From contig CAZOTB010000002.1 of the NCBI GenBank assembly GCA_964582645.1, forward strand, positions 12,777 to 76,776: 64,000 nucleotides of DNA, in the 5' to 3' direction. The position numbers were made by a program, and so were the translations under genes. Below, piece after piece: positions 18,840-51,945 of the stretch. Within the stretch, counting starts at the first letter, position 1; the number at the start of each line of letters is the position of its first letter. Origin of the DNA: an uncultured Verrucomicrobiota bacterium (GTDB lineage: Bacteria; Verrucomicrobiota; Verrucomicrobiia; Palsa-1439; CAZOTB01). The notes under the pieces were generated by a model. That model had not been told where the DNA came from. It ran no database searches and was given only the letters and a program-made list of their open reading frames with translations.

Positions 18840-18859
18840 GTAAATCCCTCGCGGATTGT

Positions 18860-18940
18860 TTGTGGTCGAGCGCTTCAGCGCGGTCATGGCGAATCTGGCC
18901 TGTCCCTTCAAGCCCGCGCTGAAGCGCTCGACTACAAGCA
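18860..18940. repeat. palindromic repeat element, copy A (19-bp perfect inverted repeat gtcgagcgcttcagcgcgg / ccgcgctgaagcgctcgac), terminator-like between convergent genes
   Basis: Perfect inverted repeat seen directly in the sequence. A second diverged copy is at 60085-60165, sharing aagcccgcgctgaaNcgctcgactaca. Confidence 0.6.
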
Positions 18941-32853: not shown

Positions 32854-33852
32854 ATGGCACGACCAGTTACGTTGTTCACGGGACAGTGGGCCGACCTGAC
32901 GTTCGAGGTGGCTTGTCAGAAAGCGAAATCGTTTGGCTACGATGGAATCGAGTTGCCTTGTTGGGGCGACCATTTCGACGTCAGCAAGGCACACAAGGAC
33001 AAATCCTACTGCGACGGGCGACACGAGATCCTCGCCAAGCATGGACTCAAGACCTGGGCCATCAGCAGCCATCTCGTCGGCCAGGCCATTTGCGACCACA
33101 TTGATGCCCGGCACAAGGCGATCCTCCCGCCGCACGTCTGGGGCGACGGTAAACCCGATGGCGTGCGCAAGCGCGCCGCCGAGGAAATGAAGAAGACGGC
33201 CCACGCGGCAAAGAACCTCGGCGTGAAAGTCGTCAACGGCTTCACCGGCAGCAGCATCTGGCATTACCTCTACAGTTTCCCGCCCGTGTCGCAGCAGATG
33301 ATTGACGACGGCTATGCGCAGTTTGCCACAGCGTGGAATCCGATCCTCGACGAGTTCAAGAAATGCGGTGTGCGGTTCGCGCTCGAAGTGCATCCAACGG
33401 AGATCGCGTTCGACATCGCCAGCTCTGAACGCGCCATCGCTGCGCTCAAGGGCCGCAAGGAGTTCGGCTTCAACTACGATCCGTCGCACCTCGGCTATCA
33501 GGGCGTGGATTACGTGAAGTTCATCCGTCGTTTCGGCGACCGCATCTATCACGTCCACATGAAGGATGTTTGGTGGGGTCACGGCGACGGCACCGTGGGC
33601 GTGTTCGGTGGCCACACCAACTTCGGCGATGCGCGCCGCTACTGGGATTTCCGCAGCCTCGGCCACGGCGACATCAACTTCGAGGAGATCATCGTCGCGC
33701 TCAACGACGTAGGCTATCAAGGCCCGTTGAGCGTCGAGTGGGAAGACATCCGCATGGATCGCGAGTACGGTGCCGCCGAAGCCTGCGCGTTCGTCAAGAA
33801 ACTCAGCTTCAAGCCGAGCGCCGTGGCGTTCGACGCGGCGTTTGAGAAGTGA
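32854..33852 (+). CDS. sugar phosphate isomerase/epimerase (xylose-isomerase-like TIM barrel)
   Basis: ATG at 32854 with an AGGGAG Shine-Dalgarno. AP-endonuclease-2 / xylose-isomerase-like TIM barrel pattern. The antisense ORF 32836..33720 is rejected. Confidence 0.8.
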
Positions 33853-34044
33853 TCGGTGGAAGCCCGATGCTGTCCAAAGCGAGCTTTCGAGTCCGGTAGC
33901 GAACAGTTTTCACTGCGTTGGAGCGATGTCGCAAGCGACCATAATCCGATTGAACCGGAACCGAGTCTGGCTTGGGATGACGGCCGGATCATTCGCTGCG
34001 AGCGTGACTTGGTATTGCGCTTATCCGAGGGTGAGTGGCTCCGC

Positions 34045-34485
34045 TCACGCGGCTTGTTCGTTCAATGGGTCTATCCACTGCAGATCGTGAAAGCGCGCGA
34101 ATCCGCTGTCGGCGCTTGCCAGGGTTGCTTCCGCCTCGATGGCAACCGCCGCGATGAACGCATCCGTGATATCGTTGCCCGCCAGGCGAAGGTCCCGGCA
34201 GAGGCGGATGAATGTTTCCCGATGCCCCGGCGCGGTGCGGACTTCGGTCACGAGGGGGCAAGCCCTGATGGCGTTCAAGAAACTGAGCGATTCTTCCAGG
34301 CTCGAAGGCTGGGCAAACGCCCGGGGATTCGTCGTGATCCGGAGGAACGCCAGTTCGGTGAACTCATGCAAACCCAGCGGCTCTCGTTCTGCGAGCTTTT
34401 TCTCCACCCACCGCTTCGCCTTGGCGTGCTGGACGAGGTCTCGGCGGAAAGCGTAGATCAACACATTGGCGTCGAGCAGTAGCAT
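34045..34485 (-). CDS. vapC: PIN-domain toxin VapC
   Basis: MLLLDANVLIYAF...D...D acidic PIN residues. Paired with the upstream RHH antitoxin. Confidence 0.8.
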   Translation of the reverse strand: MLLLDANVLIYAFRRDLVQHAKAKRWVEKKLAEREPLGLHEFTELAFLRITTNPRAFAQPSSLEESLSFLNAIRACPLVTEVRTAPGHRETFIRLCRDLRLAGNDITDAFIAAVAIEAEATLASADSGFARFHDLQWIDPLNEQAA

Positions 34486-34532
34486 GTTGACTCAGGCGGG
34501 GCGACCGTGCAACCGATGCGCGTCCATGTCGC

Positions 34533-34808
34533 TCATTTGCGGTTGTTCAGGAGCCTGGCGGCTTCCGAGTCTTCCGCGGTCTCGCGGGCGTGCCGCAAAT
34601 CCCGAACCCCTCGTGCGAACCCGCCCTTGGCACGGCTCACCGGCAGCTTGACCCTGCGCACCCGCTGGCGCGTCCCGTTGCCGGAGCGTCCCCCCAGATA
34701 CTGGCGCAGGGCATCCTCAATATAGTGGTGGAGAGTCACGCCCTTCTTTGCCGCCTCCGCTTTGGCCTGGCGCATGATACGATCATCGAACCGCAACGTA
34801 GTTTGCAT
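34533..34808 (-). CDS. vapB: VapB-family antitoxin (ribbon-helix-helix)
   Basis: MQTTLRFDDRIMRQAKAEAAKKGVTL... is typical of RHH antitoxins. Immediately upstream of vapC. Confidence 0.65.
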   Translation of the reverse strand: MQTTLRFDDRIMRQAKAEAAKKGVTLHHYIEDALRQYLGGRSGNGTRQRVRRVKLPVSRAKGGFARGVRDLRHARETAEDSEAARLLNNRK

Positions 34809-34849
34809 GTGCCAAAATTAATAGACCGACGGGTTGGTGTCAAACCGCT

Positions 34850-35206
34850 CTACTTGCCCGCCAGCTTGACCACAACGACCTTTTCAGCGTCATCCCATGT
34901 GGCAGCGTATTGCTTCGTCTTCGGGTGCTCGAGTTCGTAGTGCCGCAGGAAGGAAATGGCGGTGATTTGAAACCCTCCGCCCTTCACGGGCCGCAGCTTG
35001 TAGCTGTGCTCCGTCTCCGGCGCAACCGGGCGAATCCCGATCCGGCGCGACTTGGCATCATAGAGTAACTGTACCGCCTCGGCTTTCGGCAGATACTGTT
35101 CCTGGCACGCTTGGTTCAGACCGAAGGTGCCGTTCTTGGTCACGCTGACCGTCGGCTCCAAGCTCCTGGGTTTCCGATTTACTCCTGTAAACGTCTCGAA
35201 TCCCAT
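34850..35206 (-). CDS. hypothetical protein
   Basis: ATG at complement 35204-35206 with a GGAG Shine-Dalgarno 9 nt upstream. 118 aa. No recognised domain. Confidence 0.4.
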   Translation of the reverse strand: MGFETFTGVNRKPRSLEPTVSVTKNGTFGLNQACQEQYLPKAEAVQLLYDAKSRRIGIRPVAPETEHSYKLRPVKGGGFQITAISFLRHYELEHPKTKQYAATWDDAEKVVVVKLAGK

Positions 35207-35383
35207 AATGTGTTCTCCATTCCTTATTGAGCAGCTATTTCCAGTCTTGTCGCCGCAGGTTTTACACCTGCGAACTGTTTGCACTACAGAAAAGTCTTCT
35301 CGAATCAGCTTTCATCACCACGATACAAACCGAAAGTCCCACTTGCGTCAATGCCGGATCCAGGCGAACCCGTTCTCACGGTG

Positions 35384-35480
35384 GCAAGCTGAAGCTTGAA
35401 CTACCTACGCAAGCAGCAACCCCGTTCTTGGGAATCGAACGATCCCGGCGCCAGCGTTCGTAGTTCAAGCTTCAGCTTGC
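35384..35480. repeat. palindromic element: perfect 21-bp inverted repeat (gcaagctgaagcttgaactac ... gtagttcaagcttcagcttgc) flanking a 55-nt core
   Basis: Seen directly. The arms are themselves near-palindromic (gaagcttc). A related hairpin containing cgcttcagcttg is at 51795-51850. Confidence 0.6.
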
Positions 35481-35585
35481 TCCTGCACATGTCGCAGTGA
35501 CCGACAACCTCGGGACACCGCTTTCCGCCCGTATGGCCCGGCCCCACAATCGCTCCTGAAAGAGCTTGACCGGGCCGGGTGCGCG

Positions 35586-36236
35586 TTGCACACTCTCGGC
35601 CAAACAAGGGAAGGCGAATCACATGCGCCGAACGATCACGCGATTGACTGGATCCCGGTTGAGCGCCAGCAGGAAAAAGCACTCCATGGCCTCGTCCGAC
35701 TCGATTGGAAAGGACACCGCTTCTTGATCGCCACTGACTGTGCCTTCAGCGACGACGCCATGGATTCCCTCGCCACCCACGACCTGCGGGCGGAGGTGCT
35801 CGTCGTCCCAGGACGACTCGGACCGTCAGATCGTCCGGCTCAAGCCAGGTACCACGACCTGCTCCGAGCGTTGATCCCCGCCGCAAACCCGGAACTCATC
35901 GTCCTGTGCGACGGTGACCCGTCCCTCTTTTCCGCCACACTCGCGGTTTGCCGGACCGCGTGCCAAGCCCCCGTGCTCTCCACCCGGCTGACGGGTGCCC
36001 TGACCTTCAGCTTGACGCCGGACCGCACACTGGTCATCAGCCCCTATCACCCGAACAGCAAACCCGTTCGGCTCTCGCCGCGCCGGTCACCTCACGACTC
36101 TTTACAACCTTCAGCCCTCGACATTAAACCCCGCCACAGTGCCGATCGCCCTGTAAACAGCCCGTTTCTCGGTCCGGTACTCACGACCCGAAACGCAGCC
36201 TCAGAACAACACGGCGGGACGCATCCAGAGGAATAG
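35586..36236 (+). pseudogene. degenerate ComEC/Rec2-like MBL-fold C-terminal remnant (TTG start in track)
   Basis: The pattern GHRFLIATDCAFSDDAMDSLATHDLRAEVLVVPGRL...ELIVLCDGDPSLF aligns to the end of the ComEC MBL domain (LltGDie..E..L....advLkvpHHGS...aviS.G..N.yghPh). The metal-binding His residues are lost (HHGS -> PGRL) and the N-terminal MBL motifs are absent. Confidence 0.3.
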
Positions 36237-36238
36237 CC

Positions 36239-37075
36239 ATGACATGTAATCATTCAAGTGGAGGTTTCTTCGGAAGAATGAAGGATAAAGTTGTTGGTGG
36301 ATATGAAGGAATTAAGAATAGATTGTTAGGAGATGGTGTATTTGATTTGGAGTATGTTGGACAAGAAAGATCTGGATTACCAGGTATTAATTATGCTGGT
36401 AATAAAGCATTTACGCTGATTGAATTACTTGTTGTTACTGGAATTATTGCTATTTTAGCTGCGATGACTTTGCCTGCTTTGAGTTCTGCTAAAGCTGCCG
36501 GGAAAAGAGCATCATGCATTAATAATTTGAATCAAATTGGAAAAGCCATGACGATGTATGCTGGAGATAATAAAGATTTTCTACCTCCAACTGGGACTCT
36601 CATGAATGATGTAACTTCAGATTGGCAGCTTAGAACTCCTTTAGGCACAAATTTTAATGCGGGCATGGTTATAGCAAATGCAGGCACAACAATCTCGACT
36701 GGAAATATTGCTAGTTATAAATCGTTTGCTTGTCCCGATGCCAGTTATTTTACACTTAAGAAATTAGATGATGATTGGTCAAATCCAAGCGGAGTACCAG
36801 AAAGTTCTTATTTGTATAGAAGTAAAATGCATGGAAGACTTGAAAAGCTTGGTGATCTAAATGGTCAAGAACCAAATAATCTTATTATGACGGACTTTAA
36901 CAAATATTATGGTAGTCCAAATGAGAATCATCGAGGGAAGTTAGTAAACGTTTTATTTGCTGATGGACATGTTGCAACAGCAAATAATATAAGTAATGAA
37001 TTGGGTATTTATGTTCCGGCTCGTTTATCAAATTATTGGAATATTCTCAAGGTAAAATTTCCTGGAGGAATTTAA
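36239..37075 (+). CDS. prepilin-type N-terminal cleavage/methylation domain protein, DUF1559 (H-X9-DG) family, in a low-GC island
   Basis: [45 protein letters not shown] is the PVC-lineage prepilin/DUF1559 N-terminus. [12 protein letters not shown] looks like the H-X9-DG motif. The gene is about 35% GC against a roughly 62% GC background. An unusual 57-aa leader precedes the FTLIE motif. Confidence 0.8.
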
Positions 37076-37324
37076 CTATTTTATAAACTTTTAAATAGAT
37101 TATTTTCTTCGATTACTTATGAGAAAAGGTTGTTTGTTAATGAGAGGGATGTGTTAGTTGTCGTAGCCGCGTGGGGTGAGAGCAGCTTCTCATGCAGAAA
37201 TGTCGGGCTTGGTGCATACCTCCGATCATTGGTGCCATTCGAGTAATTCGTGGCTACAGTCTGCTCCATGACCTCCCCATCACGATCCTTGTGAATCGGC
37301 TTCAATAGGATTAGAGTATGCCCG

Positions 37325-37950
37325 ATGAAACTCCGGACGGACCTGCTCAAGCACGCGACTCCAAAGGAAGCACTCAAGGAGGGACTGGCGAACATTCACC
37401 GTTACAAGCCCGAGCCGCGTTTCTCCAAAACTGGGACTGGGAGTCTGTCGTCCGCCACAACCGAAGAGTCTGCGAATGAGGTCGCGCGCAGTACGGCACG
37501 AATTCAGAAAGCGTTGCGAAAGTCCGGAGCCAATGGGAGGAAAAACGGCTCGTCGCCGCGTCGCTAGGCGACACCCTCGATTTCCTCCGCCGTTGTCACC
37601 GCGAGGCACCGTTCTTCTTCTTCAACGGGAACACATTCGCTGAGATCGGCCGCACATTCTCAGACTACCTCTTTGCGGAACTCCCCGCCGTCCGCCGCCG
37701 CGAAGCCACTTCCGCCGTCGCCCACTACATTGCCGGTGTGCTTGACCGGCAGTTCATGGTTGAGATTGTCGAGGAGCTTTGCCAGAGCGCAGAACTCAAG
37801 CCGGGCGACCGCGTAAAGACTCTGCGCGGCTCCTCCCGAGGCGCAGTTGTCCGCTTGCTCGATGATGGCCGGGTGGTCTGGAGAGCGGACGGCGCGCGAA
37901 TGGAGATCGTCGCTTTGCCCGAGAGCCTGCTTCTCGACAAGTCGAAGTAA
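37325..37950 (+). pseudogene. frameshifted hypothetical gene (ORF 37325..37567 in frame 2 continues as frame 1 from about 37480 to 37950)
   Basis: Frame 1 is open and protein-like (…SQWEEKRLVAASLGDTLDFLRRCHREAPFFFFNGNTFAEIGRTF…) but has no start until the GTG at 37738 / ATG at 37756. The frame switch coincides with a gcgcgc tract at 37483-37490. Confidence 0.3.
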
Positions 37951-38091
37951 TGCAGTCCCAGAGAGCCGGCAAAACCATTACCGGAACAATCATTCTGCCC
38001 GCAATCATTTTGCCGGATTCTCGGAGAAATCGGATCATCCGCAGCGCCGCCTTTGTGCATCGGGGCGCCTGAGGCGGTGTCCGTAGCTTGC

Positions 38092-38328
38092 CTACGCCGA
38101 TGCGGTCGGGGAGCTGCCAGGATTCAATTCCAGTGCGGTCACCAGAAACATGTCCACGAAGCTCGATGCGTCGTTCGGGCCGTGGAAAACACAGACGATG
38201 CGTCCGGTCTGTGACGCCGCCACGAAGTCGGGATGCGCCACGGGGATGTTGCGGCCATCCGCCAGATGCATCGTGAACGGCACGAATGGCTGAGAGTGAA
38301 CCAGTTCATGAAACTCCTCGATTGTCAT
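38092..38328 (-). CDS. hypothetical small protein
   Basis: 78-aa ORF with an AAGG-type Shine-Dalgarno upstream. No recognised domain. Confidence 0.35.
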   Translation of the reverse strand: MTIEEFHELVHSQPFVPFTMHLADGRNIPVAHPDFVAASQTGRIVCVFHGPNDASSFVDMFLVTALELNPGSSPTASA

Positions 38329-38379
38329 GGCCTACCTTTTACCCTATTTGGGGGTGTCACGCAAGCCACCCTTTCTCGG

Positions 38380-39441
38380 TTAAATCATCCGTAACGCCGC
38401 CTGCATCCAGCCGAGCGCGTACGCCATGCCGGCATGCCACGGCGCGTCGCAGCTCATCTGTGGCGTGTGGTCGGGAATCAACACGCCCTCGAACCCGTTC
38501 TTCTTGAGGATGCGCAACACACGAATCATGTCCACGTCGCCTTCGTCCACGAAAGTCTCCTCGTAGTGCGGCACCTTGCCGCGAATGTTGCGGAAGTGGA
38601 CGTACCCCAGCTTCCCCTGCTTGCTGTAGTGGTCCACGACCTCGTAAATGTCGCCTTCGGTCATCTCGGCCAGTGAACCGATGCAAAACTCCAGTGTATT
38701 CGCCTTGCTCGGCTTGAGATCGAGCAACCGCTGGTAGTAGTGCGGCTGATAGACCAAACGCGGCTGGCCACGGAGCGTCGGCAACGGCGGATCATCGGGA
38801 TGCGCCGCGAGCTTCACGCCCGCGTCCTCCGCGACGGGAACGACCTCGTCGAGGAAATCCTCCAGCCGCTTCCACAATTCCTCACGATCTACCGACGGCA
38901 CGGTGCCTTTCGGCGCGTGCGGGTCGTAGATCATGTTCCAAACCATCCCGTTTGGCATCGGTGTGTCGAGCGGGCCGTCCATGCCAACGGAGAGAGCGCC
39001 GCCGCGTGCGAACGGACCGGTCACGCGTCCGGTGACGCCGGCAAGGCTGAAGTTATAGCCCATCACGGGAACTCCCGCCTTCCCGAGCCGACGGATGATC
39101 GTCTTGACGTTCTCGATGTGCTGTTTCTTCTTCGGTCCATCGAGCAACACATCGTGCCAGTGAGCAGGATCGAAGTTCTCAAACGCCTCCAACTCGAGCC
39201 CTGCGGCGTTGATCTCCTTGCGCAACGCGACGATTTCTTCGAGCGTCCAGAGCTGGTTCGGGTCGCCCGCCAAGCCCCAGCCCGTGTCGGTGCCGGTGGG
39301 TTGATTGTCGTGCGCGCTGTGTTTGCCGCCTTGGAAGTAGTCCACGTAGTGCACGACGATGTGCGTCGCGCCCGCCTGCCGCGCGAACGCAAAGTTCTCG
39401 CGCGTCAACATGTGGCGATAGAGGCCGAGTCCGAGTTTCAT
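38380..39441 (-). CDS. uxuA: D-mannonate dehydratase
   Basis: 353 aa. ...AAHPDDPP...LPTLRGQPRLV... and GDVDM match UxuA (AVHPDDPPRPILGLPRIV, NGDVDM). Confidence 0.85.
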   Translation of the reverse strand: MKLGLGLYRHMLTRENFAFARQAGATHIVVHYVDYFQGGKHSAHDNQPTGTDTGWGLAGDPNQLWTLEEIVALRKEINAAGLELEAFENFDPAHWHDVLLDGPKKKQHIENVKTIIRRLGKAGVPVMGYNFSLAGVTGRVTGPFARGGALSVGMDGPLDTPMPNGMVWNMIYDPHAPKGTVPSVDREELWKRLEDFLDEVVPVAEDAGVKLAAHPDDPPLPTLRGQPRLVYQPHYYQRLLDLKPSKANTLEFCIGSLAEMTEGDIYEVVDHYSKQGKLGYVHFRNIRGKVPHYEETFVDEGDVDMIRVLRILKKNGFEGVLIPDHTPQMSCDAPWHAGMAYALGWMQAALRMI

Positions 39442-39538
39442 TGGAAGCGATGGAAAAGTGGAAGGATGGAAGAAAGGAAGGTTGGGATCATGCAGCGAAG
39501 ATCAGTCTTCCACTCTTCCATGCTTCCATTCATCGAGA

Positions 39539-40837
39539 TCATCTTGGTCTCTCAATCTTCAGCAGCGTGTACGGATACAAGATCGTCACCCAGATTCGTC
39601 CGTCGTGTCCGACGACCATGCCCATGTGAGAATACATCGGCGTCAGTGTGCCATCGGGCAACTTGTGGAAGCCATGCCGGTAGGGACGGGGCTTGCCGTT
39701 CCAGAGCGGAGAAAAATCGGCGAAGTCGGGATTCTTCACCGCCAGCACGCCGAGGTCTTCCATCTTGCCGGTCTTGGGAGTGAAGCGCGCGAGGTGATGC
39801 AGGTAGCCGGTGCCGAACCTGGTCGTGTTGTCCACGCGGATCACCGTATAGACGCGGCCATCCGGTGCGATGCTCAACGCGCAGCGCGAGTCGGGATTTT
39901 TGCCTTCGATCATTTTCCCGTGGTTCGCCAACTGGACCGTCTCGCCTTCACTCAACAAATCCACTGAGAACAGCCGGGTGTCCGTCATCAGGATGAGATA
40001 TGCGGTTCGCCCGTCCGCGGCGAGATTCCAGGTGTAGATGCGCTCCTGATCCTTGCGGGTGAACTTCTGTCCGTCGAGAATGAGATCGCGCGTCCGCAGT
40101 TTGCCGGTCTCGGGATCGTACTGTACGAGACGGAAATCCGCCGTGATCGAGTTCGCCCGGCCATTTGCGTCAATCAACGTCGTTGCGTACGGCGTCAATT
40201 GTAGCGCCGGGTCGGGCTCGCGGTACTTCTTCGTCTTTGTGTCATAAACCATGTAATGCTGTTCCTCGCACGTGACGACGTAGATCAATCCACGCTTCTC
40301 GTCGGCGACGACATCAATCACGCCCTCCTTCGGATAGGGCATCCCGAGACATTCCGCCTTGTCCCCCTTCGGGTCGTAGGTCATCACGTAACCGCCCGGG
40401 TACTCGGAGGTGTCGCCGGGGATCACCCGGTACCCCTGCTTGCTGCCGACGTAGATTTTTCCTGATGGCCCAACGAAGTTGCGCGTATGGATCTTCGATT
40501 GCGCCGCGTAACCCGCCGCCGTCACACCGCAGAGCCTGCGGGTATCAATCACGATCCGCTGCCGTTCCGTGCGCGGGTCGAACTCGACGAGGTACGAGTT
40601 GAACTGATACTGCGCCGTGCCGACATAGACCTTGCCGTTCCTGCCCTCGCACAACGAGAAGTAGCCCGATTCCTCTGAGGTCGTTTCCGGCAGGACATGG
40701 TAGGCCTTGGCCCAGACATAAGGAAAGGGGGGGCGGTTGGTTTGCCCGGCAGGAACGCCGGAGCTGCACAGCAGCAACATCAACAGAACAAAACAGGCCG
40801 ACGGGGGCGTCGAAAGATCCACGAGTCTCCATTTCAT
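39539..40837 (-). CDS. hypothetical secreted beta-propeller-like protein
   Basis: ATG at complement 40835-40837 (MKWRLVDLS...) followed by a signal peptide. Repeated YV/GxIYVxxx motifs suggest a beta-propeller. Sits between uxuA and galK. Confidence 0.5.
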   Translation of the reverse strand: MKWRLVDLSTPPSACFVLLMLLLCSSGVPAGQTNRPPFPYVWAKAYHVLPETTSEESGYFSLCEGRNGKVYVGTAQYQFNSYLVEFDPRTERQRIVIDTRRLCGVTAAGYAAQSKIHTRNFVGPSGKIYVGSKQGYRVIPGDTSEYPGGYVMTYDPKGDKAECLGMPYPKEGVIDVVADEKRGLIYVVTCEEQHYMVYDTKTKKYREPDPALQLTPYATTLIDANGRANSITADFRLVQYDPETGKLRTRDLILDGQKFTRKDQERIYTWNLAADGRTAYLILMTDTRLFSVDLLSEGETVQLANHGKMIEGKNPDSRCALSIAPDGRVYTVIRVDNTTRFGTGYLHHLARFTPKTGKMEDLGVLAVKNPDFADFSPLWNGKPRPYRHGFHKLPDGTLTPMYSHMGMVVGHDGRIWVTILYPYTLLKIERPR

Positions 40838-40896
40838 TCGGGGGAGATTCAAACACACGCTCGCCTTTTTTCAAAGCGAATGTTAGGCAAGGGCGC

Positions 40897-42036
<1,140 letters not shown>

Positions 42037-42118: not shown

Positions 42119-44482
42119 ATGCCGCCAAGGATGAGTAAACGACTTTGGATGGACATGGTTCGCCGCTGCCTCGCCGCATTCTTGTGCGTCGTGCTCGTGG
42201 CGCCGGTTTCCGTTCCCGGCCAGGATACGCCCAAGATTGAGGGGCCGACTCTGCGTCCGGCTGCCACCGATCTGCCGCCCGCACCGCCGCCGGCGACCGT
42301 TCCCACCAAGACCGGCATGCGCGTTTCGTCGAACCCCGATGAGAAACCCAGCCTGACCGTCCGCTGGGAAAGCGCGCCGGCCGCGGCTGCATTGCAGAGA
42401 TACTCCGACCTCACCGGGCGCACCGTGATCCAGAACGCCGCGCTCTCGGGCGTGGTTTCACTGGACACCAAGACCATGCTCACCACCAACGAGATGCTCC
42501 TCGCCATCGAGAGCGTGTTGTTCGCCAACGGCATCTCGCTGACACCGATGGGCGACAAGTTTGTGAAAGCCGCCGCCAACCAGGCCATCGCGCGCGAGGG
42601 CATCGCCATTGCCGGGGCGGACGCGGAGTTTCCCGAGGGCGACCGCATCACGGCGACGGTGATCCCGTTGCAGTACCTGGATGTGGGCGACGCGTCCATC
42701 GTGCAAAGCCTGTCGCAGTTCATCCATCAACCCGGAGGCACGATCCTGCCGTTGACGCGCTCGAACAGTCTGCTGATCATTGACACCACGCTCATCGTGA
42801 AACGGTTGCAGGAGATTCTCGAGCGCCTCGATCAGAAGGTCGAGAACCGCATTCAGACTTACTATCGTCCTTTGACCAACGCAGAGGCGTCGAAGGTCGC
42901 CGCGACGATCCAGGCGTTGATCACGGGATCGGCGCCGGCGACAGGGGGCGCTCCCCGACCTCCGCCCCGGCCAGGCCAGCCAGCCACAGTGGCGGCAGGT
43001 CCTACCGAGGAGTCCATCGTAGCCGGCAAGGTCATCATCCAGGCGGACGAGCGCACGAACACGCTCATCATTTTGACCCGACCATCGAACCTCGAATTCC
43101 TCGAAGGCATCATCAGCGCGCTCGATGCGAAGGTCGAACCCGAGATTCGCTTCAAGAAATTCAAGCTCGAACACGCGCGCGCGGAGGATGCCGCCGATAT
43201 CTTGCTGTCGCTGACGGGCAGCGGCAGCCAACCGACGATCCAACGCCGCGCCTCGACCACCCAGCGTGCCGACCGCAACCGGCTCGGACGCACGAGCTAC
43301 GGCTCGAGTGCCCGCGACCGCACACAGACGGGAGCGCAACAGCCGCAGCCGCAGTTGCCGCCCATCGCGCGCCAACCGACCACGCCCACCGGGACCACCG
43401 CGACCCAACCCGGGCAGGGTGTGGAGAGGCCGGATTTCGTGTTGAGCGAACGAGCGCGCGTGATCGCCGATCCCCGGCAAGGCTCGATCCTTGTGTTGGG
43501 CACGGCCAGCGATCTGGAACTGGTCGAGATGATCATCCCGGAAATTGACCTGGCCCTGGCGCAGGTCATGATCGAGTCCATCATCGTCGAGGTCACGCTC
43601 GACAACAACGCCGAGTTCGGCGTGAACATCCTCCAGCGCGAGTGGGAAAAGGGCAGCAACAAGGGCGGCGGCGCCTCCCTGCCATCGGTAGTTGCCACCA
43701 ACGCGCTGCAGAAACTTGCGTTCCTGCGCGACCCGCAACAGTTTGCCGCCTCGGGTCTGGCGGGTCTTGGGGGGCTTACCTATTTTCTCGACCTCGGCGG
43801 CCTCGATCTCGATGTCATCGTGCGCGCCGTGGCGGGTTCGTCCAACTTCAAGGTGCTGCAGCGGCCATTGCTCCAATCGTCGCAGAACGAGCCCGCGCAC
43901 ATCTTCGTGGGCGAGACGCGCCCAATCATCACCGCCACACAAACCAGTTTCACCGGTGACGATGCGCTGCGCTCCACCATCGAACAGTTCGACATCGGTG
44001 TCACCCTTGATGTGACTCCCAACATCACGCCCGGTGGATTGGTGGAACTCGAGGTCGAACAGACCGTCGAGGACGTCTCCGGCGAAGTGCGGGTGGACAA
44101 CAACCTGCAACCGATCGTCTCCCGTCGCGAGTTGACCTCCCTGGTGAGCGTACGGGACCGGGGCGTCGTCGCGCTCGGCGGTCTCATCAAGAACGGCAAG
44201 ACGAAAACGGAGAGCAAGGTGCCGATTCTGGGCGATATCCCCCTCCTCAGCTACGCCTTCAAGCAGACCTCGTGGAAGGATTCCCGTATCGAATTGATTG
44301 TGTTCCTGCGGCCCACCGTGCTGCGCAGCGCCGATGAAGCCATGAAGGAAGCGCAGAAGTTGAGGAACAAATTCAAGGGACTCGACAACATTCCGAAACA
44401 GGACGTGCCGGCTCTGCCTGAAGAACCCGGTCCTCCCGAGAAGAAACCCTGGTACGCGCCGTTGCAGCCGCCGCCGTCCTGA
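42119..44482 (+). CDS. secretin (GspD/PilQ family outer-membrane channel)
   Basis: ATG at 42119 followed by a signal peptide. N-domains and the C-terminal secretin domain (…VVALGGLIKNGKTKTESKVPILGDIPLLSYAFKQTSWKDSRIELIVFLRPTVL). Confidence 0.85.
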   Translation: MPPRMSKRLWMDMVRRCLAAFLCVVLVAPVSVPGQDTPKIEGPTLRPAATDLPPAPPPATVPTKTGMRVSSNPDEKPSLTVRWESAPAAAALQRYSDLTGRTVIQNAALSGVVSLDTKTMLTTNEMLLAIESVLFANGISLTPMGDKFVKAAANQAIAREGIAIAGADAEFPEGDRITATVIPLQYLDVGDASIVQSLSQFIHQPGGTILPLTRSNSLLIIDTTLIVKRLQEILERLDQKVENRIQTYYRPLTNAEASKVAATIQALITGSAPATGGAPRPPPRPGQPATVAAGPTEESIVAGKVIIQADERTNTLIILTRPSNLEFLEGIISALDAKVEPEIRFKKFKLEHARAEDAADILLSLTGSGSQPTIQRRASTTQRADRNRLGRTSYGSSARDRTQTGAQQPQPQLPPIARQPTTPTGTTATQPGQGVERPDFVLSERARVIADPRQGSILVLGTASDLELVEMIIPEIDLALAQVMIESIIVEVTLDNNAEFGVNILQREWEKGSNKGGGASLPSVVATNALQKLAFLRDPQQFAASGLAGLGGLTYFLDLGGLDLDVIVRAVAGSSNFKVLQRPLLQSSQNEPAHIFVGETRPIITATQTSFTGDDALRSTIEQFDIGVTLDVTPNITPGGLVELEVEQTVEDVSGEVRVDNNLQPIVSRRELTSLVSVRDRGVVALGGLIKNGKTKTESKVPILGDIPLLSYAFKQTSWKDSRIELIVFLRPTVLRSADEAMKEAQKLRNKFKGLDNIPKQDVPALPEEPGPPEKKPWYAPLQPPPS

Positions 44483-45154: not shown

Positions 45155-46594
45155 TCAGAGCATGAAGCCGAGATCAGGATGGGCGAAACGGCCGATGTTC
45201 GGGAACACGGTGGCCATGTCCGAGCTGCCGACGCCGAACCATTTCGCGAGTGTCGCCGAGTATTCGTCCACGGAAGTGGTGGGAATCCAACGACCCAAGC
45301 CGGTGTCGTCGGGGCCGTTGACGGTGAGCGCGGGAAGAATTCCGAACGTGCGCCGACCATTGACGCCGCCGCCCACGATGATGTGGTGGCTGCCCCAACC
45401 ATGGTCGCTACCCTGGCCATTGGTCGGGAACGTCCTTCCGAAATCGCTCGCGGTGAACGCCGTGACCTTCGAAGGCAACGCGGCGTCCTCTCCTGCCTGC
45501 GCCGCGAGTTGCTCCATGGCGCGCTGGAAGGCGAAGAGGCTCTGACTCAACTCGCCGATCAGATTCGCGTGGCCGCCGACGGTGGTGTCGTTCGGATTCG
45601 CGGCGTTGCCCACCTGTCCCGTGTGCGTGTCGTAGCCACTGACCGAGACGAAGAAAATCTGCCGCTTCATGTTCATCGCCGAGCGTGCCGCGATGAGGCG
45701 GGCAACCATTTTAAGCTGGTTGCCGAGCGTGGTGTTCGGAAATGGCACGGTCCAGTACGTAGCCGACGCCGTGGGCGCGATCGCGGTGTTCAACACGTCT
45801 GCGGTGTTGATCGAATGGGCAGCGACGGTGGCGTAGGCCTGCTCCTGCATGTTCGGGTAGTTGAGCCCGAGGATGTCCTTTACCGCCTGCAAGCGCGGGC
45901 CCGTCACCCCGGTCAAGGACACCGCGCCCGTCGTGGAGACGGAGTATTGCGACACGATGTTGCCGACCTCGAATGTGTTCGCGCCCGCGAGCGTGACGGT
46001 GAGCGAGATTTTTCCGCCGTTGCTCGTGTTGAGCGTATCGAGCAGGTCGGCGCAACGTCCGCCCCACCCCGTCAGTGGCGGTTGATCGGGGATGGATGTC
46101 TGCCATTGTGTGACCTGGTCGGCGTGGGAAAACAACTGCGGCGGCTTGGCGACGCTCCCTGCCTGGTACTGGGCGCGGGTGATCGGATAGACGAGCGTGC
46201 CGGTGTTGAACAGGACCGCTAGTTTGTTCTCGGCGAAGAGCGTTTGCAGGCCGGTGCAACTGGGATGCAACCCATAGGTGTGCCCGTCATTATTGATCGG
46301 TGTAATCGGGAGCAGGCTGGATTGTGGCAGCGCGAGGTTCTGACGGATGGCCGCGTAGTTTTGGTATTCGGTGTCGCCGGCGGGCACGATCAGGTTGTTC
46401 GAGTCGTTGCCGCCGGCAAGGAAGACGCACACCAGCGCCTTGTAATCGGTGATTGTGCCCTGCGCCATCGCCGCGTTGATGAAACGCAGGTCCCGCAACA
46501 TGCTGGTGACCGCCCACGTGCCGACGGCGGCGCAGGAAGCCTTGCGGAGAAAATCGCGGCGGGTGATGGGCTGGGCGTAACGTTTGCGGCTCAT
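45155..46594 (-). CDS. DUF1501 domain protein (Tat signal, sulfatase-like)
   Basis: Twin-arginine signal TRRDFLRKA and DUF1501 pattern. Immediately downstream of the DUF1800 protein. Confidence 0.85.
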   Translation of the reverse strand: MSRKRYAQPITRRDFLRKASCAAVGTWAVTSMLRDLRFINAAMAQGTITDYKALVCVFLAGGNDSNNLIVPAGDTEYQNYAAIRQNLALPQSSLLPITPINNDGHTYGLHPSCTGLQTLFAENKLAVLFNTGTLVYPITRAQYQAGSVAKPPQLFSHADQVTQWQTSIPDQPPLTGWGGRCADLLDTLNTSNGGKISLTVTLAGANTFEVGNIVSQYSVSTTGAVSLTGVTGPRLQAVKDILGLNYPNMQEQAYATVAAHSINTADVLNTAIAPTASATYWTVPFPNTTLGNQLKMVARLIAARSAMNMKRQIFFVSVSGYDTHTGQVGNAANPNDTTVGGHANLIGELSQSLFAFQRAMEQLAAQAGEDAALPSKVTAFTASDFGRTFPTNGQGSDHGWGSHHIIVGGGVNGRRTFGILPALTVNGPDDTGLGRWIPTTSVDEYSATLAKWFGVGSSDMATVFPNIGRFAHPDLGFML

Positions 46595-46598
46595 AAGA

Positions 46599-49500
46599 TT
46601 ACTTCTGGATGGTGAAGTCCGGCGAGGTGACCATGAGGTGGATGGTGGCGCGAACCCGGTCGCGTTGCTGGCTGGCGGTTGGAGGAGTCGAATACGGGAA
46701 GTTGGTCGAGGTGACGTACGTCACAATCGTGTTGGACGCGCCTGTGGACAACTGACCCGCCAGCAGCAGGGAGTTCAGCGTGCCCACCAGGCTCGGGACG
46801 CCGGTGTTGCTGGTGTAATTGGTGGTCATGTACGGACCAATGTCGAGGACGATCGAGCCGTTGCCGTTCTTAAAGCTGTTCAACCCATTGGTGTTCGATC
46901 CCTGGCTGTTGATGATCGCCCCCGCGAGGAAGTTGTTTTGCAGCGCCACACCGGTGTCGGACGTGAGCTGGAACTCGGGCGTGGTCAATCCCGCCGAGGC
47001 GAGAAGCCCCGGGAACTTGTAGTCGGGGAAGAAGTAGTTGAACACCGTCGGCGACCGCAACGGCGTCTGGGTCAGGTCGAGGTCGGTCACGCCCATGTTC
47101 CACGTGCTCGACTGGACCGTGACGTTGCCCGATCGCACCAGCGGCGGCCCGGCTAGCGGCGCGACCACGTGGCTGTTCTGGTTTTGATTGGCGACCGCGC
47201 CGACGACGATGGTGAAGTGATCCTCATCCACGACCGACGCCACCGCATACTGGCCGTCCGCCGCCGTGCCGGACATGAAATCAATATAGACCTGGTCGCC
47301 CGGGTTCAGCCCGTGGTTGCCGGCCGTGCTGACGGTGATGATGTTTGTGTTCGGCTGCGAGTAGCCGCCCTTGTAGAACGCGAGCAGGCAATTGCCCGAA
47401 AGCGTCGCCGCGTCCGGGGTCGTCACGCTGAAAGCCGAATTCGACGGCACGCTCACCACTTCGTACACGCCGTTGGAGGCGCCGCCCGTGGTGAACGTGA
47501 TGTGCAGCCGGTTGCTGACGGCGAGTCCGTGGCCCGCCGAGTTGATCGAGATGAAGCCCCCGGCCTGGTTGTACGCGCCCGTCAACACGCCCGTCGCGTT
47601 GACCGTGAAAGTGTTCACGCCCGTCACCGTCACCGGGTACGCGGTGCTCGTCGGTACCGGAGTTCCCGAATCAAACTGGAGGAAAATATTGTTGCCCGTG
47701 GCCAGCCGGTGGGCGTTGGTGGTCGTCACCGTGATCGCGCGCCCGCCGTTCTGGCTGTAGGTGCCGCCATTCGGCTGCGGCGACGGGAACGCCCGCGCCA
47801 CGCCCGTCGCGCGCAGTAACGGCTCGCGCTGCTTGCCGAACGTCGAGCGGGTGATCTGCGAACTGCTCCGCGCTTCGTAATCGAGCAGGATTGCCTTGAT
47901 CACCGCCGCCATGTCGCCGCGAACGCCGGCGCCGTTGTCGTGGAACACCTTCACCACCCGGTAGAGATAGTCCCGGCTCGGGTGGCTCGTCACGAGTCGC
48001 TGGATGAGTTGCCGGCAGACGAATGGGCCGACGTTTGGATGGTTAAAGATCGCGTCCAGGCCGGTCTCGAGTTCTTGCAAACCATAGTTGTCGTACTCCG
48101 CGTTTGTGGGGTCGGCCTGGCTTCCCGCCGCAGCGGGCATGACCACGTTGTCGAGGATGCGTTTGGTGCCGAGTTCGTGGCGGGTGGGAACGAGCTTCAT
48201 CGGGTTGATGTAATCGGCAGCCGGGCTCCAGTTCGTCGGCAGCCGTCCATTGCTCTGGTTCGGCTGGTTGTAGTTCCAGCCCGTGAACAGCCGGGAGTAA
48301 CCGATCACGACATTCTGATCGTAGGTCGGCACCAGGTTGTCCTGCGAGTTGAGCACCAGCGTGCCGTCCGGCCACATGCGGTAGAGGCCGACCGAGAAGA
48401 GCTGCAGAATCTCGCGCGCGTAGTTTTCGTTCGGGATGCGTCCTGTGGCGAGGTCGCCCTTCTCGTTGCGGCGCATGTCGAGATACAACCCCATCGCGGG
48501 CGTGAGCGTGACCGCTTCGAGGATTTCGCGGAAGTTGCCGAAGGCGTTGTCGAGCAGCGTGTCGTAGAAGGCGGAGAGGGCGCGTCCGTTGTTGTCGAGT
48601 ACGCCGATCTCGGAGACGACCAGGATCTCGCTCAACGCAAACGCCACTCGCTGGCGCAATTGATCGGGCGCGGTGACAGACTGTTGCCACCACGAGTTGA
48701 AGGTCAGGTTGCGCGGATAGGGCGCGGTCGGATCGGAACTGAGGTTCGCCAGCACGAACGGCAGGTGATGCGACACGGGCCTGGCAAACTGATCGTCAAT
48801 CCACGCTTCGTATCCCATCGCCTGCACGGCCGCGATGTCGCTCTGGCTCGGTCCGAACGTCGCCTGCATGAGGAACCGCGCTGCGGCGTTGGCGTTGGCG
48901 TGGTCGTCCGTCCAGGCAGGCGGATCGGGCGGCGGCGAAAACGTTTGCGAGCCATTGGCGAGCGTGTAGTTGCCGCGAATCTCGCCGGCAGGGTAGTTGA
49001 CGGTGTGGATGTTGATGAAGGCCTTGCCCTGCTTGATGACCTCGAGGACGTCCGCCGCCGAGAGCGTTCCTACGGCTGCGATGGGCCAGATGTAACTGCC
49101 GTCCGCCTCCGGCGTGGCATCATCAATGTCGAAGATGATCTGGCTCGGGTGGTTCAGGTACGGGTCGGAGTGGATGTGGGCTGCCGTGTATGGGGAAGTG
49201 AGATTGGTGTAGGCGAACGAGAAGGTCGCCTGGGATTCATCGGCGCTCAGTCGCAACGTGGACGTGCCGATGCCCTGCGATTGGGCGGCACCCTGGGCGA
49301 GCATGGTGGTCGCGTAAAGCGTACCGGGGATGGAACTCGGCGGCGGTTCGACGTACGGCGACAACACGAACCCGGGCACGACCTCGCTCGGTCCCGTGCC
49401 GGCCTGGTCGGGACGCAGCCATCCCACGGCGACATTGTCGTTCGTGCCCGTGCCGGCCTTGTGCAGGACCTCGATGTAGTAGCGCTGCCCGGCCACCAGC

Positions 49501-51428: not shown

Positions 51429-51794
51429 GTTCGAGTGAATCGGGTTGTCGTCGGAACGCGCCGTTTGTGTTCTGAACACCGGCCGCGCCATTTGGTTGCG
51501 GACAAGAGCGGCAAAGCGTCCGAGGTGCCACGCTCTGCTGAACCGCCATTCGGCAAGGATATCCGCGATCAACACACACCCTCCCCCGCGCGTTCAGGAC
51601 AAATCATCGTCGTGCCTGTGAAAACGGCTGCATCGTAGGGGAAAAAAGCGCGTCTTGTCAACGCGCCAGCGCCCTGCCCTTTTCGATTTCCATTCCACCT
51701 GCGGCGGATACGATACTGCCGTGTCTCGACACGCCCTGATCGGGGACCGGATCTGGGATGGGCACCCTGCCGGACGCTCGAACAGCTTGCGTCT

Positions 51795-51850
51795 GGAGTT
51801 CACGCTTCAGCTTGTCTGGGTTCGACTGCTGCACCAAGCTGAAGTGTGAG
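51795..51850. repeat. hairpin element tcacgcttcagcttg ... caagctgaagtgtga (15-bp stem with one G-T pair, 20-nt loop)
   Basis: Seen in the intergenic region upstream of panC. It shares the gcttcagcttg core with the element at 35384-35480. Confidence 0.5.
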
Positions 51851-51945
51851 CTCCAAACGAGAGCAAATGATGCGCTGAACAGGGACTCTTGGCCGCCCTA
51901 CAAACTCTTGTCATCCTTCCCGTCATCCAGTTTAGTTGTCTCGCC

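Follow-up and report, generated by a model that had tools for sequence, protein, structure and literature searches.

The question raised by the locus described here is whether a group of accessory genes, placed between two genes of core metabolism, is a recent genomic insertion or whether it is better explained by the history of its own lineage. The locus lies at 33.9-38.3 kb of a stretch of 64,000 nucleotides (nt) from an uncultured Verrucomicrobiota bacterium, and this whole stretch is called the window in the following. The patch is bordered on the left by a xylose-isomerase-like TIM-barrel gene (ending at 33852; PF01261, E 1.9e-44) and on the right by uxuA (38380-39441; PF03786, E 8e-55). 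A preliminary description listed within it a vapBC toxin-antitoxin pair, a hypothetical protein of 118 amino acids (aa), a perfect inverted repeat, a ComEC-like remnant, a prepilin gene of about 35% guanine plus cytosine (GC), a frameshifted open reading frame (ORF) and a small hypothetical ORF, and took them together as hallmarks of a recombination or insertion hotspot. All these features are present there, and the accessory content (pseudogene fragments and a toxin-antitoxin pair) is as it had been claimed. Considered as a whole, the patch is probably a variable region of composite nature where the gene order is broken, with the relic of a competence locus at its centre and an exchanged AT-rich pilin-like gene.

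The centre of the patch is best understood from its ComEC fragment. ComEC is a DNA-uptake channel composed of an oligonucleotide/oligosaccharide-binding (OB) fold (DUF4131), a Competence transmembrane domain and a C-terminal metallo-beta-lactamase-like nuclease domain (PMC8579336, PMC5031224), the latter being a nuclease in characterised systems (PMC8579336). The fragment in the window, comEC' (35541..36236, plus strand), includes ORF216 (35586-36236), and its homology to ComEC starts at ~35541-35565. ORF216 aligns to residues 735-888 of P0126, a ComEC protein of 921 aa carrying DUF4131 and Competence domains, with 48% identity (E 1e-46); in tblastn searches with this 921-aa ComEC, the window is matched only to residues 728-916, and a second copy on another contig, L169, is matched as far as residue 720. 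ORF216 therefore represents the last ~155 residues of the C-terminal metallo-beta-lactamase-like domain, the N-terminal half of which, with its metal-binding motifs, is absent. Neither the DUF4131 OB-fold nor the Competence transmembrane domain was found in ORF216 by Pfam matching, and PADLOC, PHROGs and NCBIfam gave no match for it, whereas a profile search among 1.84 billion representatives returned four matches, namely two ComEC proteins and two other fragments. Since these ComEC domains are absent, ORF216 is a gene fragment and not a ComEC, and it is incapable of acting as a DNA channel. Related to this, the full-length ComEC of the relative has PGRIGP at the site where a metal-binding motif of the HHGS type would presumably be expected. 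The frame of comEC' is the best of the six and is open in all copies; its ratio of non-synonymous to synonymous substitutions (dN/dS) is 0.47-0.65, its GC content at third codon positions (GC3) is 0.69, below that of most neighbouring genes, and its pattern of GC1, GC2 and GC3 is atypical. From these values we read comEC' as a putative relic under relaxed constraint.

The origin of this fragment is indicated by the arrangement in a more distant relative. In L171-L173, a homologue of the 118-aa protein (P0124) is encoded beside a PD-(D/E)XK gene, which it follows in L171, and both genes face a full-length comEC (921 aa, with DUF4131 and Competence domains). In L171 a prepilin gene begins 25 nt after comEC, and it has 38.6% GC in a contig of 61% GC. 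The corresponding pieces can be recognised in the window. The gene for the 118-aa protein, hyp118 (34850..35206, minus strand), forms the left end of a repeated module, and it is accompanied by the remnant of the 3' end of the PD-(D/E)XK nuclease gene (35314..35379, minus strand), in the expected position and orientation. The translation of the latter, ..GTFGLYRGDES*, is matched by the C-terminus of the 334-aa PD-(D/E)XK protein of L171, ..GRFALYRGD* (22 aa, E 0.008 in a small search), and the remnant is also present in L169. When the window is compared with L171, ~3.2 kb are missing, which correspond to the 5' portions of the two divergent genes and to the DNA that separates these genes; an inverted repeat (35384..35480, without assigned strand) is placed between the nuclease and comEC remnants, at the junction of the missing DNA. 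The ComEC remnant and the prepilin gene, which had been listed as separate items, are thus the two halves of one ancestral operon, as it is found in L171.

On the basis of this comparison, the 2.3-kb centre of the patch (~34850-37129) would be the relic of a competence-type locus. Its ancestral, L171-like state would have consisted of an operon of PD-(D/E)XK nuclease and hyp118 genes, divergent from a second operon, with full-length comEC and a DUF1559 prepilin gene. A deletion of ~3.2 kb would have taken away the 5' portions of the two lead genes together with their common promoter region, leaving ~20 codons of the nuclease, a palindrome of the repetitive extragenic palindromic (REP) type at the junction and the last ~200 codons of comEC, with hyp118 and the prepilin gene as survivors. 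The truncated comEC'-prepilin unit would then have reached at least four genomic contexts, and its copies may still exchange sequence by recombination. The pilin would be exposed at the surface, and its variable C-terminal domain would be swapped between the conserved 5' end of the gene and its 3' flank, the replacement alleles probably coming from a horizontally shared AT-rich pool. The vapBC pair, the frameshifted ORF and the small ORFs would be ordinary accessory or decaying passengers.

Against its copy in L169, hyp118 has a dN/dS of 0.08 (dS 0.62), and because of this value it is taken as a real gene; judging by the same ratio, it is under strong purifying selection. Its homologues form just three clusters among 5.8 billion proteins; hyp118 and ORF216 have two or three homologue clusters each in this set. 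PADLOC, PHROGs and NCBIfam gave no match for hyp118, and nothing significant was obtained with its profile in a search of the PDB. An AlphaFold (AF2) model from a three-sequence alignment reached a predicted local distance difference test (pLDDT) score of 40 and is unusable; the beta-beta-alpha-beta-beta pattern in it may hint, weakly, at an AbrB/SpoVT-like fold.

The inverted repeat at the junction had been described as perfect, which holds for its 21-bp core stem and not for its complete 27-nt arms, as these are 93% complementary and are separated by a spacer of 43 nt. Its predicted folding energy is -58 to -64 kcal/mol (z ~-6.4), and it is 96% identical between the window and L169 whereas its surroundings are 86-88% identical. 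Further long imperfect palindromes occur at 51785-51864 (arms of 30 nt), also within a divergent intergenic region, and at 18857-18940 (arms of 32 nt). The first of them has in common with the repeat of the patch the core GGAGTTCA[AC]GCTTCAGCTTG, and the second is a looser relative; besides, a solo arm of the palindrome is found at the same junction in L170, a third copy of the module. From their sequences, these palindromes look like a small lineage-specific family of REP-like elements.

The truncated unit is not restricted to this patch. L169, a contig from the same sample, contains a second copy of the module in a different context, where LplA is followed by hyp118 (minus strand), then by the same palindrome, by ORF212, by a prepilin gene which is AT-rich (37% GC), and finally by a PIN pair and pyruvate dehydrogenase (PDH) E1. 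With 85% identity the DNA of the window and of L169 can be aligned from 34851 to 36477, and once more in the 42 nt that follow the stop codon of the prepilin gene; beyond 34851 and 37129 the flanks are unrelated. In L170 and in a fourth and more distant copy, L174, a ComEC-C-like ORF is also followed directly by a DUF1559 prepilin gene, and therefore the truncated comEC'-prepilin unit is present in at least four genomic contexts (the window, L169, L170 and L174). All four truncated copies have a TTG start codon and an upstream motif GAAAG.GCTTGA[CG], neither of which is found in full-length comEC; in the window the conserved motif GCTTGACC..TTGCACACT occupies 35564-35594. The common start codon and motif indicate that the truncated copies probably descend from one truncated ancestor which later came to stand in different contexts. 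A side observation concerns L174, where the gene upstream of comEC' begins (1-123) with a DnaA-C-like helix-turn-helix (..RDRYGDWGRDAVLSLGRNLCGMKLRELG), a sequence which we take to resemble transposase-associated proteins of bacteria of the Planctomycetes-Verrucomicrobia-Chlamydiae (PVC) group. In L178, which encodes a more distant ComEC (P0128), no prepilin gene lies downstream of it; the linkage of comEC and prepilin gene is therefore lineage-restricted.

The retention of an open frame in comEC' could also mean that it is not a relic at all, and that the stand-alone domain of the ORF216 family is a new accessory protein which works with the DUF1559 prepilin in a functional two-gene operon. 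The frame is open in four diverged copies, including P0127, which have the derived TTG start in common; the ORF216 stop codon lies 2 nt ahead of the prepilin ATG, and the dN/dS of ORF216 is below 1. However, the protein would contain only the C-terminal half of a metallo-beta-lactamase-like domain, which, judging from the domain boundaries, would be unlikely to fold alone; the actual dN/dS values and the atypical codon-position pattern given above correspond to relaxed constraint, and the family is very rare, with its four matches among 1.84 billion representatives. This functional interpretation is therefore considered unlikely. If comEC' is a relic, as we prefer, one speculative reason for its persistence would be that it provides expression signals for the prepilin gene or is translationally coupled to it.

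The gene behind comEC' (36239..37075, plus strand) is the ~35% GC prepilin gene of the preliminary description, with 35.2% GC and a GC3 of 0.20. It encodes a prepilin-like protein of the DUF1559 type, 278 aa long with a leader of 55 aa, which is recognised by PF07963 (25.8 bits, cut-off 21.2), by TIGR02532 (25.4 bits, cut-off 16.3) and by DUF1559 itself (PF07596; 36.5 bits, cut-off 23.3), the match to the latter involving only positions 2-46 of the 268 in the profile. The C-terminus scores 15.1 bits against TIGR04294 (H-X9-DG), below the cut-off of 19, and its motif spacing is ten residues, the same as in its nearest homologue, P0002. In the AF2 model the prepilin helix (residues 60-110) has a pLDDT of ~90 and the globular part 35-70. 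A Foldseek comparison of this model with the PDB yielded nothing significant, the best match being PilA of Myxococcus xanthus, which was confined to the helix (E 0.55). When the window and L169 copies are compared, residues 1-123 of the protein are 57% identical, and the remaining 155 residues have no similarity. The gene is followed by a conserved AT-rich 3' flank (37076..37129, plus strand), which forms the right end of the repeated module and whose motif CTTTTATA..TTTTCTT[CG]GAT[TA]A..ATG is common to the window, L169 and the distant L171 locus. The prepilin is thus conserved at its beginning and in its 3' flank, and variable in between.

Related to its composition, the prepilin gene is the sole stretch below 47% GC in the 64 kb when 300-nt windows are used. 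The GC of the whole window is 61%, the patch apart from 36239-~37140 has 54-64% GC, and the GC3 of the other ORFs of the patch and of the two flanking genes is 0.67-0.82. Changes as abrupt as those at ~36239, which is the prepilin ATG, and ~37140 might be produced by a metagenome assembly in which a low-GC gene had been mis-joined to high-GC flanks, and a related contig, L008, does look mosaic. Nevertheless, the sequence from 33685 to 42000 is found again, with 99.96-100% identity, in independent Joint Genome Institute (JGI) and Logan assemblies of no fewer than five further samples, both edges of the low-GC gene included; in all, six independent assemblies have these junctions, and homologous loci have the same GC step. 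It follows that the patch is neither an assembly artefact nor a chimera, and a mis-join has practically no chance of being the explanation. The window itself is contained in the JGI metagenome contig Ga0394876_0001529 (73.9 kb), and the best matches of its isomerase are Verrucomicrobia metagenome-assembled genomes from palsa and soil samples.

The composition is also an argument for a classical genomic island or hotspot, in which the whole 4.5 kb, and especially the low-GC prepilin gene, would have been acquired recently by site-specific or illegitimate recombination. This proposal is favoured by the difference in GC3 and by the low identity of the closest prepilin homologue (P0002 in L175, just 41%, with the same unusual helix sequence), which is encoded in a contig of lower GC and adjoins a tyrosine-recombinase-like ORF. 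To these points the toxin-antitoxin pair, the pseudogene fragments and the break in gene order at the uxuA 3' end in contig L089 can be added. On the other hand, the atypical composition on which the compositional part of the proposal relied is real in the prepilin gene but is confined to these ~0.9 kb, outside of which GC and GC3 in the patch are host-like. A tRNA scan found no tRNA gene in the 64 kb, the genes called up to ~10 kb to the left and to the right code for no integrase or transposase, and the patch borders show no convincing att-like direct repeat. Defence-system and phage libraries gave no match.

Moreover, the AT-rich composition accompanies the prepilin gene elsewhere. In L169 and L171 the comEC homologues also have an AT-rich prepilin gene behind them; in L170 the beginning of such a gene is seen there, and the one of L174 is more weakly AT-shifted. 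The genes linked to comEC in the window, L169 and L171 have 35-39% GC, while on L169 the GC of a further DUF1559 paralogue is 62%. Low GC would thus be a standing property of the comEC-linked prepilin gene. As this gene recurs behind comEC homologues with a conserved leader and 3' flank, it belongs to a lineage-conserved unit and not to a one-off insertion, and its low GC is no evidence of a fresh foreign insertion in this patch. Recent acquisition of the whole patch is distinctly unlikely in view of these results. What remains of the hotspot proposal is a variable region with signals of recombination; the integrase or tRNA type of island is not supported.

P0002, P0007 and P0010, the closest homologues of the prepilin, are not linked to comEC. 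The P0002 gene has 26-37% GC in a contig of 43-48% GC, and it is therefore AT-richer than its own flanks; after it, at 1455-1664 of L175, there is an ORF with a tyrosine-recombinase-like N-terminus. This context hints that AT-rich prepilin alleles are able to travel as mobile cargo. Other types of variable element were also considered for the patch. An integron cassette was rejected because there is no integrase and no attC-like site was seen by eye, a shufflon or invertible segment because only a weak 18-nt inverted repeat (36472/37789) and no recombinase were found, and a diversity-generating retroelement because there is no reverse transcriptase.

The gene order around the patch was compared in relatives with both flanking genes as anchors. 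A test anchored on the isomerase among 185,579 species genomes gave two closest genomes (85% and 83%; L009 and L010), which have no common neighbour with the window on either side, core genes included; since no neighbour is common, these matches were rejected as a test of order, as they are paralogues or too distant. The best contig anchored on UxuA, the metagenome contig L089 (UxuA 90% identical), keeps the pair hyp432-uxuA, and beyond the uxuA 3' end it has one unassigned ORF followed by DUF1501 and DUF1800 genes. Neither the patch nor the isomerase is there, so the conserved order is interrupted at the right border of the patch, and the patch is not retained by the closest of the available relatives. 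Among the UxuA-anchored metagenome contigs, of which only L089 keeps one neighbour, there was no empty site. The DUF1501/DUF1800 pair directly downstream of uxuA in L089 has a paralogue in the window at 45155-51575, where a DUF1501 gene stands beside a giant gene of 1658 aa with DUF1800, PA14 and CHRD; this placement indicates different arrangements around uxuA in the genome of the window and in L089.

Signs of exchange between copies come from the comparison of the window with L169. The divergence between them is 12-14% throughout hyp118 and comEC', and within these surroundings a tract of 102 nt (36099..36200, plus strand) is identical, which is expected by chance at ~7e-7 per start position. 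The contig L008 (JGI 3300043267, Ga0484935_018164), which spans the equivalent of 35046-37957 of the window, is identical to the L169 copy up to 36098 and to the window copy from 36201, so that the switch falls inside the 102-nt tract. In three further samples short contigs end at 34949 or begin at 36421, and these are the places where the copies have common runs longer than the assembler k-mer; breaks at such places indicate that both copies are present in those samples. The signals of exchange fit gene conversion between paralogues in one genome, and they fit equally two co-occurring relatives together with one chimeric contig.

A more specific form of exchange would be pilin variation from stored cassettes, in which truncated units donate C-terminal domains by gene conversion to a full-length comEC-prepilin locus of the same genome, the homology arms being provided by the 3' end of comEC and by the conserved 3' flank. 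There are several diverged copies with conserved arms and unrelated C-terminal domains, which co-occur in at least five samples; the 102-nt tract and the mosaic contig that switches inside it are as such a system would leave them, and one copy, that of L169, is non-functional as a gene yet retained. However, no full-length comEC-prepilin locus has been found for this organism, no recombination-initiating element was identified, and each copy is a complete gene that has a start codon and leader of its own and is no promoterless partial cassette. The copies may belong to more than one genome, and L008 can be explained as an assembly chimera. The cassette model is therefore given only a small probability.

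Several observations weigh against the interpretation of the centre as a relic with an exchanged pilin gene. The direction of the deletion is deduced from one full-length locus, in a more distant relative whose hyp118 is 75% identical, and the nuclease remnant is recognised from only ~20 residues. The prepilin leader is atypical, because it has 55 aa with Ala at position -1 and does not correspond to a short leader with Gly at -1; related to this, the first 54 nt of the gene have six differences from L169, and those identified by eye (codons 1-18) are all synonymous, from which it follows that the 55-aa leader is probably translated. The prepilin gene of L169 has TGA for the Gly codon of the DGH motif (L169 3325-3455), which points to decay, and not to maintained function, in at least that copy. 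After this TGA the frame is open for ~38 further codons up to a TAG, and either a recent nonsense mutation or read-through may be considered; the window gene is intact. Besides, L008 may be an assembly chimera across the common 102 nt instead of a true recombinant, and the data are compatible with the window and L169 copies belonging to one genome or to two co-occurring relatives. The nearest relatives share no gene order left of uxuA from which the borders of an island could be taken. Finally, no function is known for DUF1559 proteins, and a pilin under diversifying selection is suggested here by analogy.

The remaining features of the patch are the presumed passengers. The vapC gene (34045..34485, minus strand) encodes a PIN-domain toxin of 146 aa with 121.2 bits to TIGR00028 (cut-off 73.6) and 48.7 bits to Pfam PIN (cut-off 23.6; E 1.4e-12). 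The active site of the PIN fold usually has the pattern D-E-D-D, and acidic residues, with positions judged by eye, are found in the translation at D5, E41/E44, D98-D108 and D126. A vapB-like antitoxin candidate of 91 aa (34533..34808, minus strand) is encoded 47 nt upstream on the same strand; its matches are below threshold (DUF6364, E 0.0019; CopG_antitoxin, E 0.01; an Arc-like PHROG, E 0.008; HicB), and from them it is probably a ribbon-helix-helix protein. A PIN-type toxin-antitoxin pair directly adjoins both module copies, at 34045-34808 in the window and at 3563-4214 in L169; the two pairs stand on opposite sides of the module and are non-homologous (no tblastn match at E 1e-3).

To the right of the module, there is a candidate frameshifted gene (37325..37950, plus strand). 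It is composed of orf80 (37325-37567) and an open frame of 157 codons, which has no ATG, GTG or TTG until a GTG at 37738, ends at 37950 and has normal coding composition (GC3 0.74). A frameshifted gene is a plausible reading of this sequence; orf80 and the second frame had no family match in PADLOC, PHROGs or NCBIfam, and the second frame had none in a PDB sequence search. The last ORF of the patch encodes 78 aa (orf78, 38092..38328, minus strand), 51 nt downstream of uxuA and on the same strand. It has coding-like composition (GC3 0.73) and is called in all assemblies, it is missing downstream of uxuA in L089, and it gave no match in PADLOC, PHROGs or NCBIfam and nothing significant in a PDB sequence search.

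Scans for promoters and terminators gave no signal beyond the shuffled expectation, and the Rfam scan of 30-42 kb gave chance-level miRNA-like matches alone. These concern a hairpin at 39452-39535, in the intergenic region between uxuA and hyp432, with sub-threshold matches to miRNA families (27 bits, E 0.09-1); this is most likely nothing more than a generic hairpin or terminator matched by chance. Beyond uxuA, hyp432 and galK, ~5 kb to the right of the prepilin gene, a secretin gene (42149-44482; 777 aa, Secretin_N and Secretin domains) is found, which could belong to pilus or type II secretion machinery.

The interest of the locus goes beyond the patch. DUF1559 / H-X9-DG prepilin-like proteins occur in Planctomycetes, Verrucomicrobia and Lentisphaerae and are among the largest uncharacterised families in these phyla. 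The locus provides a rare contextual clue, as one sub-lineage of DUF1559 genes stands directly behind comEC, ~25 GC points below the genome and with conserved ends and a variable core, as in pilin alleles that are exchanged; the link with comEC suggests a role of this prepilin in DNA uptake or surface variation. No paper linking DUF1559 with prepilins or with comEC was found in the literature, and no published description was found of the AT-rich DUF1559 gene linked to comEC together with its dispersed truncated copies. A bolder proposal, which we hold to be rather improbable, is that the AT-rich DUF1559 gene encodes a variable surface subunit of a pilus for DNA uptake or adhesion, and that the dispersed truncated units are a reservoir of alleles used by gene conversion. 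If it were true, there would be cassette-type pilin variation in a free-living phylum of soil and peat, and a first functional handle on the huge DUF1559 family. The locus also shows how a low-GC gene in a high-GC genome can be misread as a fresh island. As a whole, it is a modest novelty within the familiar theme of variable pilin loci, and the other content of the patch (a toxin-antitoxin pair, debris of pseudogenes and an interrupted gene order) is ordinary.

The elements of the patch can be compared one by one with systems already known. Like a ComEC, ORF216 is homologous to the C-terminal domain of the relative's bona fide three-domain protein, over its last ~155 residues, whereas it has no OB-fold, no channel domain and no N-terminal half of the nuclease domain. 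The toxin-antitoxin pair resembles VapBC modules in having a PIN toxin beyond the family cut-off and a small upstream gene on the same strand with weak ribbon-helix-helix signals; it differs from them in the 47-nt gap between its two genes, which do not overlap, and in an antitoxin that matches no family. Compared with REP elements, the palindrome of the window is likewise imperfect and intergenic, has several related copies and lies at a rearrangement junction, but its arms are longer (21-30 nt), there are two clearly related copies and one looser copy in 64 kb, and no RayT-type transposase was identified here.

With regard to the pilin gene, two known situations are relevant. In Neisseria, antigenic variation by pilE/pilS relies on one expression locus and promoterless partial cassettes in the same genome. 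The present locus is similar in its several pilin-gene copies with conserved segments and a differing variable domain, and in its signs of gene conversion; it is different in that the copies are full genes with a start codon and leader, and no expression locus or G4 element was found. This likeness is offered as a lead only, by analogy. The second situation is that of exchanged pilin loci. The pilin groups of Pseudomonas aeruginosa are hypervariable major-pilin loci which are exchanged horizontally. In Vibrio cholerae, the GC of pilA, which belongs to the DNA-uptake pilus, is ~9% lower, and the pilA tree is incongruent with that of the genomes (bioRxiv 10.1101/2023.10.25.564063). The locus described here departs from these examples in its far larger GC deficit (~25 points, GC3 0.20), in a protein of the uncharacterised DUF1559 / H-X9-DG family which is no proven major pilin, in the 55-aa leader with Ala at -1, in the truncated comEC neighbour and in the dispersal of the unit in several contexts. 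It agrees with them, on the other hand, in a conserved N-terminal methylated helix followed by an unalignable C-terminal domain, in a GC content below that of the genome, in conserved flanks which may serve as recombination arms and in a link with competence through comEC.

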